A stretch of DNA of 64,000 nt from Candidatus Woesebacteria bacterium UBA5941 (lineage in GTDB: Bacteria; Patescibacteriota; Microgenomatia; UBA8517), in NCBI GenBank assembly GCA_002430735.1, contig DJCV01000011.1, positions 19,612 to 83,611 of the forward strand. The letters run 5' to 3'. Shown one piece after another: positions 19,525 to 42,371 of this stretch. Each line of letters starts with the position of its first letter. Within the stretch, counting starts at the first letter, position 1. A program made the translations under genes and the position numbers. Under the pieces are notes generated by a model. It ran no database searches. It saw only the letters and a program-made list of their open reading frames with translations, and was not told the origin of the DNA.

Positions 19525-19836
19525 TTACAAGGAAGAAGCTGATGCGTTTAAATTAGTAAACTCTCCATCAACAGACTCAATCTTTGTTGAATCAATCTCT
19601 TTTCCAATGACATCTATCTCTGTAGATGTTGAGACTGTAGGAACTGGAGTGAAATCAGGACTCGATTGCTGAGTTTCCATTTGTGTAACAGGGGGTGGAG
19701 GAAGCTTGGTTGTTGTGCTTCTTGATGGCTTTTTTAATACAACAAACCCTACAACCCCAACGATTGCAAGCAGTGTAACTGCAACGAGTGCAATAAATGC
19801 ACTAAAGCCGTTTTGTGACTGTTTTAAATAATTCAT
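19525..19836 (-). CDS. hypothetical single-pass membrane protein (alternative upstream start would add a His-rich leader)
   Basis: MNYLKQSQNGFSAFIALVAVTLLAIVGVVGFVV. The start at 19836 abuts the upstream gene; the longer ORF to 19926 would overlap it by 89 nt. Confidence 0.4.
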   Translation of the reverse strand: MNYLKQSQNGFSAFIALVAVTLLAIVGVVGFVVLKKPSRSTTTKLPPPPVTQMETQQSSPDFTPVPTVSTSTEIDVIGKEIDSTKIESVDGEFTNLNASASSL

Positions 19837-37038: not shown

Positions 37039-38199
37039 ATGGACAAGCCATTAGCAGAACTATTGAGACCAGAATTGCTTTCTCAGTACATTGGGCAGGA
37101 ACAGTTAACGGGCTCTGGAAAAATTATCCCAAAGCTTATAGAAGGTGCACAAAGAAATGGCTTCTTTCCTTCAATTATTCTCTGGGGTCCCCCTGGCGTT
37201 GGAAAAACCACACTTGCACGAATCATTGCGTATGAAATTAAAAAGCCATTTCATGAATTTAGTGCAGTGAGCGCTTCAGCTAAGGAAATTCAGAAAGCAT
37301 TAGCTGCACATTTAGGAGAAACACCCGTTGTTTTTATTGACGAAATTCATCGATTTAATAAAGCGCAGCAAGACAAACTCCTCCCTTTTGTTGAAAAAGG
37401 CGAAATGATTTTCATTGGTGCAACAACCGAAAACCCTTCCTTTGAAGTAATACGCCCGCTTCTTTCACGGAGTCGGGTGCTTGTCTTGCAAGAACTAACA
37501 AATGAGAACTTATTGGAAGTTTTAAAAAGAGGGCTTTCCCATATCAAAAAAACGATTTCAAAAGAGGCACAGGACTTTTTGCTGGATAGCGCAAACGGAG
37601 ATGCTCGCACACTTCTAAACGTCTTGGAAATTGCAGGACACATGGCTGAGAAGAAGGAATTGGTTCTAGCAGATATTGAGCAGGCATTGCAGAGAAGATC
37701 AATTGGATTTGATAAGCAAGGTGATGAGCATTACAACATTATTTCAGCATTTATCAAAAGTATGAGAGCAAGCCAGACGGATGCAGCTCTCTACTATCTC
37801 GCGCGAATGGTTGAGGCAGGACAAGACCCGTTATATATTGCAAGGCGTATGGTGATCTTTGCATCTGAAGATATCGGTATGGCACAACCAACAGCTCTGG
37901 TTGTCGCAAATGAGGTGTTTCGCTCATGCGAGGTGATCGGTTACCCGGAATGTGCAATTAATCTCGCACATGGCGTCGTCTATTTGTCTGTAGCGAAAAA
38001 GGATCGACGGGTATACGATGGATTACGCGCGGCTCAAGCGGATGTACAAAGTTTTGGGAATTTGCCAATTCCTTTAAAAGTAAGAAACGCTCCAACAAAA
38101 CTCATGAAAGACTTAGATTATGGAAAGTCGTATGAAATGTATGACACTGAAAGTTATCTCCCAGACAAGATAAAAACCAAGAAATACTTCAAAAAATAA
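37039..38199 (+). CDS. rarA: replication-associated recombination protein A (RarA/MgsA AAA+ ATPase)
   Basis: LWGPPGVGKTTLARIIA, Walker B VFIDEIHRFNK, and the MgsA C-terminal domain. Confidence 0.9.
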   Translation: MDKPLAELLRPELLSQYIGQEQLTGSGKIIPKLIEGAQRNGFFPSIILWGPPGVGKTTLARIIAYEIKKPFHEFSAVSASAKEIQKALAAHLGETPVVFIDEIHRFNKAQQDKLLPFVEKGEMIFIGATTENPSFEVIRPLLSRSRVLVLQELTNENLLEVLKRGLSHIKKTISKEAQDFLLDSANGDARTLLNVLEIAGHMAEKKELVLADIEQALQRRSIGFDKQGDEHYNIISAFIKSMRASQTDAALYYLARMVEAGQDPLYIARRMVIFASEDIGMAQPTALVVANEVFRSCEVIGYPECAINLAHGVVYLSVAKKDRRVYDGLRAAQADVQSFGNLPIPLKVRNAPTKLMKDLDYGKSYEMYDTESYLPDKIKTKKYFKK

Positions 38200-38206
38200 T
38201 TATTGG

Positions 38207-38235
38207 TTGCAATCATTATTTTTGAACGGTAAAAT
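38207..38235 (+). promoter_or_regulatory. sigma70-like promoter TTGCAA-17-TAAAAT driving the GC-rich orphan gene
   Basis: ttgcaa at 38207-38212, a 17-nt spacer, and taaaat at 38230-38235. Downstream are a leader hairpin cctga...tcagg and the SD aggagg at 38282-38287. Confidence 0.45.
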
Positions 38236-38292
38236 TCTCCCATCCTGATGCGGTCATCGTAGTCAGGCAAAGTTCCTTTACAGGAGGTTTCT

Positions 38293-38640
38293 ATGTTACT
38301 GCGTGAAGCAATTCAGCCGGAAGTGTTGGTGCAAAAGCTGGTAGTTGCAAGCAAGAGCCAACCGCAGCCAGGGCCGACGGAAGGTGACGTTGTCGTCCGA
38401 GCCGGAAATATAACAGTCGAAGCTGGTAACGCTATTCGATTCTGTTTCATGACCCCTGTGACTGTAGTGTCAGGGCAGTTGCCGGCGAAAATTCCAAACG
38501 ACGTGGAATTCGCTGAAAACGTGAAGTGGAATGGCCAGCTCTACGACGCTCAAGAGCTGGACATCGGCATTCACTATAACGGCACGACCAAGATCACCAG
38601 CATCAGCCCGGCCAAGAAGCGCGAAGCAGTCCCGGCTTAA
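38293..38640 (+). CDS. compositionally foreign orphan protein (115 aa), hypothetical
   Basis: The ORF has a strong SD (aggagg 5 nt upstream). Its GC is about 57% against a window background of about 42%. Codon usage is ctg/ccg/gcc/ggc-rich and unlike neighbouring genes. It is flanked by its own promoter and terminator. Confidence 0.6.
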   Translation: MLLREAIQPEVLVQKLVVASKSQPQPGPTEGDVVVRAGNITVEAGNAIRFCFMTPVTVVSGQLPAKIPNDVEFAENVKWNGQLYDAQELDIGIHYNGTTKITSISPAKKREAVPA

Positions 38641-38657
38641 CATCCTCCTCATCGTGG

Positions 38658-38694
38658 GGTGGTCATCAAATTATTGATGGCCACCATTTTTTTT
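38658..38694 (+). terminator. rho-independent terminator
   Basis: 12-bp stem ggtggtcatcaa / ttgatggccacc with a 4-nt loop, followed by 8 T. Confidence 0.7.
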
Positions 38695-38696
38695 GC

Positions 38697-39410
38697 TTAA
38701 GAAAGAAGCATGAGAGTGGCCATGCCCACCATCGAAAGATCTTCAAATAGTGCGACTTTAGACATAGGGAGTTTAAAAAACCCTCCCAAACATGCACATT
38801 CTATTTGTCGTTTCCCCATCAATGCTTTGATAACACCAATACTTCCAATTCCCATCACAACGATTGTCACAACACTCAAAAGATCCATCGAGTAGCGAAG
38901 GAGAAATCCTATGCCTAGGAACAGTTCTATAAACGGATATATGGTTCCGTATCCTGGAATCCATTGCGCAAGCAGATCGTACTTTTTAAACGCAGCTGGG
39001 AAATTTTTAATATTGGCAATTTTAAATGCTGAAAAAATAATAAAGAATGCTCCCATGAAGTCTGCCATTAACTCTTCACTCATCCACATACTATTCACTG
39101 CTGCTCGAATTATCATAAAGAGAATAACAACTCCATAAATAAGAAGTACTGGCGTATAAACGCTGTAATCGTGACCATGCGCGACTTGTACGACTGGACT
39201 GGTCACCAAAGTATAATGAGTCCCCTTCTCATGCAGCACGTTATTTAACATATCCATCGCAAGTGGTTTTTTTGAAGTCACCACTACTTCGTTTTTTTGA
39301 TAGGATGCACGAACCTTTATCACACCAGGGACTTTTTCAAAGGCGTCTTCAATGGTTAATGCACAGTTTGCACAATGCATTCCTTGGACGTAGTATTTTT
39401 GGGTTATCAT
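38697..39410 (-). CDS. heavy-metal-associated (HMA) domain fused to a 4-5 TM membrane domain
   Basis: N-terminal GMHCANCA metal-binding motif with a ferredoxin-like HMA fold. The C-terminal polytopic domain carries a CACLGG motif. Confidence 0.65.
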   Translation of the reverse strand: MITQKYYVQGMHCANCALTIEDAFEKVPGVIKVRASYQKNEVVVTSKKPLAMDMLNNVLHEKGTHYTLVTSPVVQVAHGHDYSVYTPVLLIYGVVILFMIIRAAVNSMWMSEELMADFMGAFFIIFSAFKIANIKNFPAAFKKYDLLAQWIPGYGTIYPFIELFLGIGFLLRYSMDLLSVVTIVVMGIGSIGVIKALMGKRQIECACLGGFFKLPMSKVALFEDLSMVGMATLMLLS

Positions 39411-39428
39411 AGGTACAATGACACTGTT

Positions 39429-40415
39429 ATGTTACCATTTTCGTCAATATCAGTAGCATTCATAACAGGACTGACGAGCGGCGGATTTTCATGCGCTGCA
39501 ATTCAAGGTGGATTACTTTCTTCTTCACTCTCTAAAATACCTCAAAAAGGATTAGGACTTGCCGCCTTTTTAGGATCGAAACTTATTGCGTACGTTGTAC
39601 TCGGAGCTATCCTCGGTGCGCTCGGTGGAACACTTCAAATTAGTTTACAAACACAAGCATTCCTTCAAATTGGTGCAGGTCTTTATATGCTCGCGAGTGC
39701 CGCTAATTTACTGGAGCTCCATCCTATTTTTCGATACACAGTAATTACACCACCACGATTTATATATCGCTTTATTAAATCGACTACCAAAACAGAATCC
39801 GTATTCACACCAGCACTCCTCGGCGCGTTTACCGTATTTCTCCCTTGTGGAGTAACACAGGGAATGATGATTTTAGCGCTCTCTTCAGGAAGTGCATTAA
39901 GTGGGGCTGGAATACTTGGCGCGTTCATTATTGGGACAATGCCTCAATTTATTGCGCTCGGAATCGCTTTTGGAACAATGATGTCAAACACGATCTTCAA
40001 AACTGCAGCATCGCTCGCTGTTGTATACGTCGGGCTTGTTGCGATTAACACGGGGCAAATATTGAGAGGCTCACCTCATACATTTCAAAATTATGTATAC
40101 GTTATCCGACAATCCGAACCCACCGGCCAATTGGCAGAAGTTCTCAACGGGGTACAGGAGGTAAAAGCTGAAGTCTCAACGCACGGATATAAAATGTCAT
40201 CAAATGTCTTAAAAGCAGGAGTTCCAGTACAACTCAGGCTTGTATCAGAAAAAGCCGAAGGATGCGCACGAGCGTTTTCAATCCCTTCACTTGGCATTTC
40301 AATGCTTCTCCCTGAAACCGGCGAGAAGACCATTACATTTACCCCATCTAAAAAAGGTCTTCTCACATACTCATGTAACATGGGTATGTATACCGGATCA
40401 TTCCAGGTTATTTAG
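39429..40415 (+). CDS. polytopic membrane protein with conserved Cys motifs and a C-terminal cupredoxin-like domain; putative metal transport or redox protein
   Basis: GLTSGGFSCAAIQGG and VFLPCGVTQG lie in TM helices. The C-terminal soluble domain ends ...YSCNMGMYTGSFQVI, a Cys/Met metal-binding pattern. Start may be 39375. Confidence 0.5.
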   Translation: MLPFSSISVAFITGLTSGGFSCAAIQGGLLSSSLSKIPQKGLGLAAFLGSKLIAYVVLGAILGALGGTLQISLQTQAFLQIGAGLYMLASAANLLELHPIFRYTVITPPRFIYRFIKSTTKTESVFTPALLGAFTVFLPCGVTQGMMILALSSGSALSGAGILGAFIIGTMPQFIALGIAFGTMMSNTIFKTAASLAVVYVGLVAINTGQILRGSPHTFQNYVYVIRQSEPTGQLAEVLNGVQEVKAEVSTHGYKMSSNVLKAGVPVQLRLVSEKAEGCARAFSIPSLGISMLLPETGEKTITFTPSKKGLLTYSCNMGMYTGSFQVI

Positions 40416-40630
40416 TTTCCGCTTCCTTGGTCCGTTGAAACGTTCACATCTATCTTGTCAGGAACAGTAATTTGAGTTTGATTTGGTGTCGTTGCACGTC
40501 TCAACACTGGCAGCCCAAAATAGATTGCAAAAACGATAAGAGCAATAAACACGCCGAGATACACAAGCGGCATTAAACTATTTGATTGATCGTTTGTTGG
40601 AGCTGGGTTATTAACAATAGTAGCCATCAA
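40412..40630 (-). CDS. small single-pass membrane protein
   Basis: 72 aa with TM helix LMPLVYLGVFIALIVFAIYFGL. Confidence 0.35.
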   Translation of the reverse strand: MMATIVNNPAPTNDQSNSLMPLVYLGVFIALIVFAIYFGLPVLRRATTPNQTQITVPDKIDVNVSTDQGSGN

Positions 40631-40730
40631 TCACCTCCTTAATATAACTAGTATGGATTACTCTTGTATGAACTCCGTTGAATAATAATGTGAAGTGTGT
40701 AAGAAATCCTCAAAGAATTCTCCGTTGTTC

Positions 40731-42371
40731 TTAAGGTTGGTATGTAATGATTAATTTTGGAGCGTTAGCTGGAGACCCATCGTATGAGGCAGAGAACTTT
40801 CTTCCCCATGCACCTCCAGTGCCTTTCATGATCACAGACAAGCTATTTCCTGAATTCCAATCGCTGCGGTTCACAACTTCTTGAATAACTGGCGCCATTT
40901 GATTCAATGTGTACCAAGTGTTTGCTGTCCAAGAAACATTTGAAGAATGTGCTACTTTTGCTGTAGTTAATGTTCGGGTTGAGAGTTTGGCCGTTGAACT
41001 AAATACAGCACTGTTTCCAACTTTCTCAGCTGCAATGCTCATGGCCATTGACTGCCATGCAGTTTGACTCGCGAGTACTTGTACTTGAGCTGACAAAATA
41101 GTTGCGTTTCGTGGAATATTAACCCCCGTAAATCGATATCCAGTGTAGCTTGATGTAGTGCTACTTCCATTCCCAGTCCACAAAGTAGGCGCTGTCAAGT
41201 TCATACTCGTTCCATCTTGATTTGCATCGTTGGCTGATGAGGCAACTTGCAAGGTCACGGTTGTTTGCACTGGAGTTGGTGTTGGAGTAGGCGTTGGGGT
41301 TGGGGTGGGTGTAGGCGTAGGTGTGGCTGTAGATGTTGGAGTCGCCGTTCCTGTTGGTGTTGGAGTAGGTGTCTCAGTCGGGGTTGCAGTAGGTGTAGGT
41401 GTTGGAGTAGGTGTAGCTACACTAATTCCAGCGTTCACGAGAATTTCGCTATCTGTAAATAGTGGAATTGAAAGTCCAAGTGCCACGTTAATTCTCTCAA
41501 TTACAGCGTTTGCAAATAAGCCTTCTATTACAGTCCCTCCGTGAATATTGTCAGCCAATGTGACGTGATGAGGCTCGTCACCGTTTGAAAGTAAAGTGAT
41601 TGCTTCTCCTCCAACAATAAGATTACCAAATGCATCGACTCGACTTAGCGTTGCAGTCGCAAATGCCTGTTGGTCAAAAATAACAACTCGAGGCCTGGTC
41701 GTTGCAAGAGAGAGAATACCATTATTTGTCTCATTGACAGCATCGGTAACTTTCTGTCGCTTTACTGGATCAGGAAACTGAGATTGCCAATACAAACTCT
41801 GACCAGGATCTGCGATGGTTCCTAATACTACTTTTGTGGTTGTATCTGCAGCGAGCACCGTATCTAGAGCTGTGGTGACATTTGAAAGGTACGTATTTAT
41901 TTTATTAGTCAGGGCCTGTCCCGCTATAGTACCGTTATAAATATCTGCACCATCACGGTAATACGCAAAGTCATTATTTCCAATTTGGAAATATACAACG
42001 TCGATTAAACCTGATTGGATTTGATTTGCAATCCCTGTGTGTTGTCCTGCGATCACAACATCATCTGCTTCTGCTCCACTTCGTGCCCAATTATATTCAA
42101 ACCCACTTCGACGAGGTTCTGGCCGTGTTCCCCAACTTCCGAGATTAAATCCTCGATATTCTTCTAATAATTCAGTCCATGCAAGTGTTGTTGCGGCATA
42201 CGGAGTGTTTGCTGCTCGGTTATCATTTGATCGATATTCGTCAGAACTACTATCACTCATGACCGCAAGTCGAACAGTAACGGTTTGCGCATCGGAAGTT
42301 ATTGGAGAGGCGAGAAGGAAGACGGTTATCGCAACCAGGCTTATACCAAAGATGTGGAACAGGTACTTCAT
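40731..42371 (-). CDS. secreted SGNH/GDSL-type hydrolase with (TP)n linker and C-terminal beta-rich (binding-like) domain
   Basis: Signal peptide present. GDSL block II QIGNNDF. Long TPTPTP linker. C-terminal roughly 200-aa domain. Confidence 0.6.
   Translation of the reverse strand: MKYLFHIFGISLVAITVFLLASPITSDAQTVTVRLAVMSDSSSDEYRSNDNRAANTPYAATTLAWTELLEEYRGFNLGSWGTRPEPRRSGFEYNWARSGAEADDVVIAGQHTGIANQIQSGLIDVVYFQIGNNDFAYYRDGADIYNGTIAGQALTNKINTYLSNVTTALDTVLAADTTTKVVLGTIADPGQSLYWQSQFPDPVKRQKVTDAVNETNNGILSLATTRPRVVIFDQQAFATATLSRVDAFGNLIVGGEAITLLSNGDEPHHVTLADNIHGGTVIEGLFANAVIERINVALGLSIPLFTDSEILVNAGISVATPTPTPTPTATPTETPTPTPTGTATPTSTATPTPTPTPTPTPTPTPTPVQTTVTLQVASSANDANQDGTSMNLTAPTLWTGNGSSTTSSYTGYRFTGVNIPRNATILSAQVQVLASQTAWQSMAMSIAAEKVGNSAVFSSTAKLSTRTLTTAKVAHSSNVSWTANTWYTLNQMAPVIQEVVNRSDWNSGNSLSVIMKGTGGAWGRKFSASYDGSPANAPKLIITYQP
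41262..41420. repeat. (ACN-CCN)n low-complexity coding repeat encoding a Thr-Pro linker
   Basis: Runs of gttgg/ggtgt/aggcgt units that translate on the minus strand to TPTPTP... Confidence 0.7.

Follow-up and report, generated by a model that had tools for sequence, protein, structure and literature searches.

A DsbD_2 membrane protein with a predicted CupA-type Cu(I) site and a divergent HMA-MauE protein in Candidatus Woesebacteria: two metal-associated families in a lineage-specific arrangement

The stretch of DNA analysed here (the window, 64,000 nt) is positions 19,612 to 83,611 of contig DJCV01000011.1 from Candidatus Woesebacteria bacterium UBA5941 (assembly GCA_002430735.1). Two membrane protein genes diverge within it. 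Gene A (237 aa, minus strand) fuses a heavy-metal-associated (HMA) domain to a MauE-like membrane domain, and gene B (328 aa, plus strand) joins a DsbD_2 (CcdA-like) membrane core to a C-terminal domain predicted to hold a Cu(I) site of the CupA type. The B family belongs to a copper-stress module that includes a gene for a CsoR-family repressor, and the A family is metal-associated in its own right. A and B, both copper-type membrane proteins, lie side by side as a peculiarity of their lineage and not as an obligate pair. The features of the locus are listed in Table 1.

Table 1. Features of the gene A and gene B locus (positions in the window; aa, amino acids; TM, transmembrane; ORF, open reading frame; pLDDT, the AlphaFold2 confidence score)
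Feature	Position	Strand	Basis or remark
Gene B, 328 aa: DsbD_2 (CcdA-like) core and predicted CupA-type cupredoxin domain	39429-40415	+	ORF, Pfam, AlphaFold2 (pLDDT 85.9)
Six-TM core of B, residues 1-213	39429-40067	+	AlphaFold2 helices and conservation
C22 of B (TM1)	39492-39494	+	invariant membrane cysteine
C140 of B (break in TM4)	39846-39848	+	invariant membrane cysteine
CupA-like cupredoxin domain of B, residues 232-328	40122-40412	+	phmmer, profile, Foldseek
C279 of B	40263-40265	+	aligned with a CupA ligand position
C316-N-M318-G-M320 of B	40374-40388	+	CxMxM, aligned with CupA ligand positions
Gene A, 237 aa: HMA-MauE fusion membrane protein	38697-39410	-	ORF, Pfam, AlphaFold2 (pLDDT 92.8)
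HMA domain of A, residues 1-70	39201-39410	-	Pfam, Foldseek
C13 and C16 of A (GMHCANC)	39363-39374	-	CxxC pair of the HMA domain
Extra TM helix and MauE-like four-TM core of A, residues 82-237	38700-39167	-	Pfam MauE, AlphaFold2
CAC motif of A, C205-A-C207	38790-38798	-	conservation; loop before the last TM helix
Spacer between the divergent A and B starts	39411-39428		sequence; holds a TACAAT box (39414-39419), 9 nt before the B ATG
12-bp hairpin with T-run	38658-38685	+	terminator scan; 12 nt past the A stop codon (38697-38699), 3' of the 115-aa ORF

The domains of both proteins were assigned with Pfam scores far beyond chance. B matched DsbD_2 (PF13386) over residues 10-203 with 89.5 bits (cut-off 24.9, E 3.4e-25) and Cupredoxin_1 with 32.2 bits (cut-off 27), and A matched HMA (PF00403) with 43 bits (cut-off 24.8, E 5.9e-11) and MauE (PF07291) over residues 114-236 with 52.6 bits (cut-off 27, E 7.5e-14). 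No NCBIfam model was found for B, and the NCBIfam matches of A covered the HMA part only, all far below cut-off (MerTP 33 vs 180 bits; MerP 32.6 vs 92.6 bits). These results agree with an initial annotation made from the DNA letters alone, which had read A as an HMA domain (GMHCANCA) fused to a TM domain with a CACLGG motif, and B as a polytopic protein with the motifs SCAAIQGG and FLPCGVTQG and a Cys/Met-rich end. The two motifs of A lie at residues 10-17 (GMHCANC at 10-16) and 205-210, and those of B at 21-28, 137-145 and, for the Cys/Met-rich end YSCNMGMYTGSFQVI, 314-328.

The same annotation had proposed that the C-terminus of B is a Cu(I)-binding, cupredoxin-like domain, and this proposal was borne out by sequence and by predicted fold. 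A phmmer search of B against the PDB returned CupA of Streptococcus pneumoniae (2mry/4f2e, E 8.5e-8) and the metal-binding domain (MBD) of its CopA (4f2f, E 4.9e-6) and no other matches; with a family profile the E-values were 1.6e-13 and 9.4e-13. The AlphaFold2 model of B, built with 62 homologues, gave the same two top matches in Foldseek, with target-normalised TM-scores of 0.89 for CupA (root-mean-square deviation 1.6 Å) and 0.83 for the CopA MBD (1.5 Å). The domain is 29% identical to CupA, and the alignment places C279, C316, M318 and M320 of B on C74, C111, M113 and M115 of CupA. In CupA, the S1 site, which binds Cu(I) with high affinity, is reported to consist of C74 and C111, and the S2 site of C74, M113 and M115 (PMC5646241; PMC7558416). 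Among 120 homologues of B (48-69% identity), C279 and C316 are present in all, and M318 and M320 each in 116. Based on the match to CupA and the CopA MBD and on the conservation of the four ligand positions, the C-terminus of B is predicted to be a CupA-type Cu(I) site, with the complete set of ligands for two copper ions. Loss of the ligands in homologues had been named in the initial annotation as a finding that would refute the idea; the ligands were found to be conserved, and the idea stands.

In the AlphaFold2 model, the membrane part of B consists of six long helices, of which TM4 is broken at residues 138-140, and the beta-rich domain follows them. The membrane cysteines C22 and C140 occur in 120/120 homologues of the same set. 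His and Met residues are conserved on the flanks of this pair (H98, H217, M87 and M146); H98, in the basic loop between TM3 and TM4, is invariant, and H217, just after TM6, is present in 112/120. Profile searches of the PDB found no solved relative for the membrane part. Averaged over the family, Lys plus Arg count 10.6 in loops 1-2, 3-4 and 5-6, compared with 2.4 in loops 2-3 and 4-5, the N-terminus and the stretch that follows TM6. This charge bias predicts, by the positive-inside rule, that B has its two ends, and with them the CupA-like domain, on the outside. A relative of B at L150, which has an extra N-terminal helix after MSVKK, fits this orientation.

A word-indexed search retrieved 1073 homologues of B, mostly from Patescibacteria; those with names belong to Woesebacteria, Microgenomates and unclassified Patescibacteria. 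The gene neighbourhoods were taken from a metagenome scan that gave 80 B loci (76 non-redundant), and each neighbour was counted among the loci with enough flanking sequence. A gene for a CopZ-like HMA protein of 60-85 aa lies directly downstream of B on the same strand, overlapping it or just past its stop, in 62 of 64 loci, and 54 of these 62 proteins have an M.C..C motif at the start. A gene for a CsoR-family repressor (Pfam PF02583, E 1e-21) lies within 400 nt upstream of B in 35 of 55 loci, divergently in 34, and Cys/His/Cys at CsoR-like spacing are found in 35/35 of these proteins. The flanks also hold a CopA-type P-type ATPase (HMA N-terminus, CPC, DKTGT) in 15/35 loci and a stand-alone, TM-anchored CupA homologue with CxMxM in 10/35. 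From these CopZ, CsoR-family, CopA and CupA neighbours the B family was assigned to the copper-stress module. Redox proteins also occur near B: a TM-anchored CPHC glutaredoxin-like protein in 17 loci (a weak Pfam match), and a WCGPC thioredoxin-like protein in 11 and a thioredoxin-reductase-like protein in 10, both recognised by motif only. In the 64 kb of the window there is no homologue of CsoR, CopA, CupA or CopZ, and the sole HMA domain is that of gene A.

Three further protein families without a Pfam match recur near csoR and the B-copZ genes: a 174-aa membrane protein with HCPLC (30 loci, e.g. L098 4598-5122), a 176-aa protein ending in CCRE (25 loci, e.g. L110 4976-5506) and a third of 228 aa, hydrophobic at its N-terminal end and with PCCGNSTWFPDCNHG (20 loci, e.g. 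L115 1-685). They may be additional components of the copper module. Stand-alone single-helix CupA homologues (C...CGM[NG]M) were also seen adjoining an HMA-type CopA in Patescibacteria (L090 4183-4542, L105 1007-1366, L139 5166-5549 and others). Here a cupredoxin chaperone accompanies an ATPase whose domain is of the ferredoxin type, whereas in streptococci the pairing is cupredoxin with cupredoxin.

The model of A shows an HMA fold (beta-alpha-beta-beta-alpha-beta), a linker and five TM helices (residues 82-106, 111-132, 154-171, 175-198 and 218-236). Foldseek placed CopZ, PacS and MerP on the HMA part with TM-scores of 0.74-0.85, and neither Foldseek nor profile searches with A matched anything beyond that part. 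Among 157 homologues, the CxxC pair is kept in 147 and the CxC motif in all. K130, Y144, D145, E162, E223 and M227 are invariant and M230 is nearly so, with E223, M227 and M230 on the last helix. MauE has been described as a DsbB-like protein that replaces DsbB in Escherichia coli through a periplasmic CXC motif, and docking has suggested that a conserved Lys and a conserved Glu on its first two helices make up a quinone site (bioRxiv 10.64898/2026.03.05.709764). K130 and E162 of A sit on the first and second core helices, a match to the published positions that was judged by helix only. By the positive-inside rule, the loop charges of A (Lys plus Arg 8.3 vs 1.05) would make the HMA domain cytoplasmic and the CXC loop likewise, so that the two are predicted on one side of the membrane.

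An exhaustive HMMER search with A gave 173 cluster representatives at E<=1e-30, nearly all of 225-255 aa and matched over their full length. A locus scan with one genome per species, for which a 20-sequence subset of the alignment was the query, found at least 596 loci of the family. The best 80, all full-length, come mostly from Flavobacteriaceae and other Bacteroidota, and also from Planctomycetota, Marinimicrobia, Ignavibacteria and one Alphaproteobacterium. Their neighbours include a small protein in which a hydrophobic N-terminal leader is combined with an HMA domain (40/80 loci), a CusB-like adaptor with HMBD and DUF3347 (32/80) and an AcrB/CusA-type pump of the resistance-nodulation-division (RND) family (28/80); a TonB-dependent receptor (30/80) and a TolC-like channel (26/80) were recognised by eye, with no family search. 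In HMA-less relatives the HMA domain is replaced by His-rich or Cys/His-rich N-terminal tails (P0250, P0233). These tails, together with the neighbours of the Cus/Czc efflux type, indicate that the A family is associated with metals in its own right. Examples of the setting are found in L006-L085 (e.g. L039 1069-4776, L065 859-2577, L009 9005-9385). A 137-aa Cys-rich protein is conserved beside the HMA-MauE gene in loci of Bacteroidota and Planctomycetota, and two variants of A (P0160, P0257) carry an insert of about 130 aa that separates the HMA domain from the first helix.

Between A and B, whose start codons end at 39410 and begin at 39429, there is an 18-nt spacer (AGGTACAATGACACTGTT); the start regions do not overlap, as had been claimed for them. 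No Shine-Dalgarno sequence was found at A or B, whereas the small ORF on either side carries AGGAGG. In the window and in two related loci, L168 and L004, there is a GTACAAT box 8-9 nt ahead of the B ATG, which suggests that the transcript of B is leaderless. A generic promoter scan gave sites no commoner than in shuffled sequence, and a search for inverted repeats near it found a single one of 8 nt, so no operator can be claimed. The hairpin 3' of A lies between A and a convergent 115-aa ORF and may serve both genes. A longer reading of B from 39375, which would overlap A, was rejected, since the gene callers of three source records give a product of 328 residues and close homologues are equally long. 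A start of A at M11, as called by one gene caller (P0121), was also rejected: it would cost the HMA domain its first beta-strand, and M1 is kept by all 114 homologues compared in the family.

The mechanism proposed here builds on the observed domain identities, ligand conservation and genomic associations of the two families. The reading that we tentatively favour, at somewhat less than an even chance, is that both proteins handle Cu(I) with cysteine pairs and that B works as a thiol-based relay of Cu(I) across the membrane. A cytoplasmic donor of the HMA type would pass Cu(I) to the membrane pair C22/C140, and this pair, flanked by H98, M87, M146 and H217, would alternate its access between the two membrane faces and hand Cu(I) on to the outer CupA-like domain. 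The relay would be independent of ATP and would act beside CopA under the control of CsoR, as a copper counterpart of MerP-MerT-NmerA running outward, a direction of copper flow that is hypothesised. The donor in nearly all relatives would be the CopZ encoded directly 3' of B. In the window it is possibly the tethered HMA domain of A, and A would then stand in for CopZ as a membrane-tethered protein or act as a further unit that handles Cu(I). Support for copper comes from the CupA-type ligands, from the copper genes that accompany the B family and from the presence of the A family in metal-efflux operons.

Several points weigh against this relay. Transport by either family is argued from analogy. 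The B core is homologous to CcdA/DsbD, which transfer electrons, and some loci of the B family carry the thioredoxin, thioredoxin reductase or TM-anchored CPHC glutaredoxin-like protein mentioned above. The sidedness of A is in conflict, since homology to MauE would place the CXC motif outside, and the HMA domain outside as well by way of the extra helix, whereas the loop charges point to the inside. A stand-alone CupA of bacteria of the candidate phyla radiation (CPR), if it is cytoplasmic as in pneumococcus, could not meet an extracellular CupA-like domain. As regards the pairing, L168, the closest relative of B (69% identity), is without A, another CPR genome (carrying P0124) has A without B, and A lies beside only 1/80 B loci and a B-like gene beside 0/80 A loci.

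The redox genes near relatives of B fit an alternative in which no metal passes through B. Electrons from cytoplasmic thioredoxin would run through C22/C140 and keep C279 and C316 reduced, either for Cu(I) or for repeated reduction of Cu(II) at the surface, and A would be an opposing thiol oxidase of the DsbB type that acts on its own HMA cysteines. The DsbD_2 match of B is in line with this, as are weak DsbD_TM (PF02683) matches of many homologues and the cysteines in TM1 and TM4 of a protein with both ends predicted outside. CcdA has the same six helices, the same cysteine placement and the same N-out/C-out topology as predicted for B, and the gamma domain of DsbD is a parallel case of a cysteine-pair domain fused outside the membrane. 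The S1 cysteines of CupA reduce Cu(II) in vitro, and their re-reductant was stated as unknown (PMC5646241). A also fits, as MauE can stand in for DsbB by means of its CXC and A keeps the CXC motif with K130 and E162 on the matching helices. This electron route nevertheless leaves the near-universal and often overlapping copZ 3' of B unexplained, and likewise the conserved His and Met residues near C22 and C140. The window offers no thioredoxin-fold partner for either protein, and none is encoded by the genes that flank A; the CXC loop of A would be in the reducing cytoplasm according to the positive-inside analysis. It also counts against it that, to our knowledge, CPR bacteria generally lack quinones, the proposed substrate of MauE. 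We regard electron supply by B as rather unlikely, but as the main rival of the relay.

The pairing itself raises the question whether A and B are functionally linked at all. Both could be copper-related proteins without any such link, A having been inserted or retained beside B by chance in one small CPR lineage and the partners of each being encoded elsewhere. The divergent pair was found in three related genomes only: the window, L167 (A 58% and B 62% identical to those of the window, 16-nt spacer) and L004, which shares a contig with L086 (47% identity for A and 53% for B, 29-nt spacer, with copZ still downstream). L168 has the gene order of the window (ABC ATPase, MgsA, small GC-rich ORF, B, small TM protein) except for A. 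No DsbD_2 or cupredoxin gene occurs within 6 kb of A at any of the 80 A loci, and in Bacteroidota A belongs to RND efflux operons. The separate occurrence of A and B agrees with chance adjacency, and the pair is not a conserved module. However, the near-abutting divergent layout (16-29 nt spacers) has been kept in three genomes although the proteins are 47-62% identical, A and B both lack the Shine-Dalgarno sequence that the flanking small ORFs have, and in the window the pair occurs together with a loss of the copZ and csoR genes that usually adjoin B, so that A supplies the sole HMA domain where the usual CopZ partner is gone. A chance association is judged improbable, and a functional link between A and B is hypothesised.

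Transport by membrane cysteine pairs is the Mer paradigm, and import of Hg(II) or another thiophilic metal for detoxification by the HMA and Cys pairs, as by MerP/MerT, was weighed as well. The HMA matches of A do include MerP, the MerTP fusion and the HMA domain of mercuric reductase. These Mer matches are confined to the HMA part and lie far below the NCBIfam cut-offs given above; no Mer protein was seen among the conserved neighbour clusters or, beyond the HMA part, among the scanned window proteins, with no dedicated search for MerA or MerR. The relatives of B sit with a CsoR-family repressor, CPC-type CopA, CopZ and CupA, and CxMxM is a Cu(I) site in CupA (PMC5646241). Copper is preferred over mercury because of this copper-gene context and the weak Mer scores, and a Mer-like role is very unlikely; the specificity for copper in vivo is hypothesised. 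The view of the locus as a copper- or mercury-like module thus stood as far as a soft metal, most likely copper, is concerned, and mercury was the part that fell away.

On a wider and rather doubtful proposal, the two proteins would represent two classes of copper protein that arose by recruitment of opposing disulfide-redox cores. One, widespread in Patescibacteria, would be the CsoR-regulated CcdA-like protein with an outward CupA domain, acting as a Cu(I) relay or as a Cu(II) reductase of the cell surface that recharges itself and traps Cu(I); the other would be the HMA-MauE protein of at least several hundred species, which would couple a CXC site, possibly a quinone-linked one, to copper. 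In the lineage of the window the two would have been wired together, the tethered HMA domain replacing the lost CopZ.

Compared with known systems, the outer domain of B has the same cupredoxin fold as CupA and the CopA MBD of S. pneumoniae (PDB 4F2E/2MRY, 4F2F), with two Cys and CxMxM, and both CupA and B are tethered to the membrane. CupA, however, has a single N-terminal helix, is cytoplasmic and feeds CopA, whereas the domain of B is C-terminal to a six-helix core and predicted to face outward. CupA also works with a cupredoxin-type CopA, whereas the CopA proteins in B-related loci have HMA-type N-termini and the window has no CopA. With the CcdA/DsbD core (Pfam DsbD_2, "UreH-like") B shares six helices, the cysteines of TM1 and TM4 and an outer Cys-bearing fused domain; DsbD has a thioredoxin-fold domain and partners in cytochrome c maturation, whereas B has a cupredoxin domain predicted to bind Cu(I), and CopZ, CsoR-family and CopA partners in relatives. 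Like B, COG2836 of Firmicutes (HMA and DsbD_2 with or without DUF2318) combines a DsbD_2 core with a soft-metal domain, and CsoR has been predicted to regulate this related group in gut Firmicutes (PMC4938975); the fused domain is HMA in COG2836 and a CupA-type cupredoxin in B. The layout of a CsoR-controlled cop operon was found at loci of relatives of B and was absent from the window.

A shares with MauE the family profile and the CXC before the last helix, and it has an invariant Lys and Glu on the first and second core helices. It differs in its extra N-terminal helix, in an HMA domain where MauE has a thioredoxin-fold partner, in L-G instead of F-G after the CXC, in the additional invariant E223 and M227, in a CXC predicted to be cytoplasmic and not periplasmic, and in a context of metal efflux instead of oxidative folding. 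MerT-MerP and MerTP follow the same logic (outer soft-metal domain, membrane Cys pair, cytoplasmic HMA acceptor or donor), and their membrane parts are not homologous to A or B. The initial annotation was thus right that the layout is none of the standard CopA, CopZ or MerT forms; neither architecture is rare, however, as both are already numerous in databases under generic names such as "sulfite exporter TauE/SafE family protein" and "copper chaperone CopZ". A literature search found no experimental study of a DsbD_2-CupA or an HMA-MauE fusion.

Bacteria are known to export copper by means of P-type ATPases, RND pumps and chaperones, either soluble or anchored. If B proteins move Cu(I), or feed electrons to an outer copper site, they would add a route that depends on a cysteine pair and not on ATP, and B would suggest what re-reduces the cysteines of CupA, a question left open in PMC5646241. 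Reviews describe CupA as confined to a few streptococci (PMC5646241; PMC7558416); CupA-type sites reach far beyond these and are abundant in Patescibacteria, whose minimal genomes retain a copper module of several parts, among them a gene for a CsoR-family repressor. The HMA-MauE family, known from sequence as a conserved component of metal-efflux operons in Bacteroidota, would add the handling of metals to the formation of protein disulfides, the role recently proposed for MauE. For the present, the locus stands as a well-annotated example of two common architectures known from sequence, in which the pair itself is a local arrangement.

The locus is also found, with identical sequence, in contigs of a metagenome-assembled genome of Patescibacteria (GCA_002430615.1) and in several metagenome contigs of the JGI. 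The surroundings of A and B are of the housekeeping type (SecA, MgsA, SerRS, GreA, Lon), and the GC content at third codon positions (GC3) is native, 0.37 for A and 0.34 for B against 0.30-0.375 in neighbouring genes. The native composition and the housekeeping synteny, together with the occurrence of A and B apart from each other in relatives, show that the genes are neither foreign nor an obligate pair, and the notion of a foreign accessory cassette was abandoned for them. What had been called an adjacent foreign cassette is probably the 115-aa ORF at 38293-38640 (+).

Beyond the end of B there is a 546-aa protein (40731-42371, minus strand) that starts with a hydrophobic leader. Its N-terminal region resembles a GDSL lipase below the threshold, and a long linker of Thr-Pro repeats leads to a C-terminal domain; the protein gave a weak match to phrog_15511 (5e-8) and is absent from the syntenic locus L004. 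Between this gene and B, a 72-aa single-helix membrane protein is encoded at 40412-40630 (-), with its stop overlapping that of B by 4 nt. It had no match in Pfam, NCBIfam or PHROG, and it adjoins B in L004 (44% identity), where copZ, missing in the window, lies between them, and in L168 (36%). The 115-aa ORF had no significant Pfam match and none in NCBIfam or PHROG, and an Rfam scan of 37900-40800 was empty. Its composition is an outlier, with a GC content of 0.53 and a GC3 of 0.60 against about 0.34 in the neighbours, and it has a strong AGGAGG ribosome-binding site. A homologue with 38% identity occupies the same position in L168, where its GC3 is likewise high (0.49 vs about 0.28).

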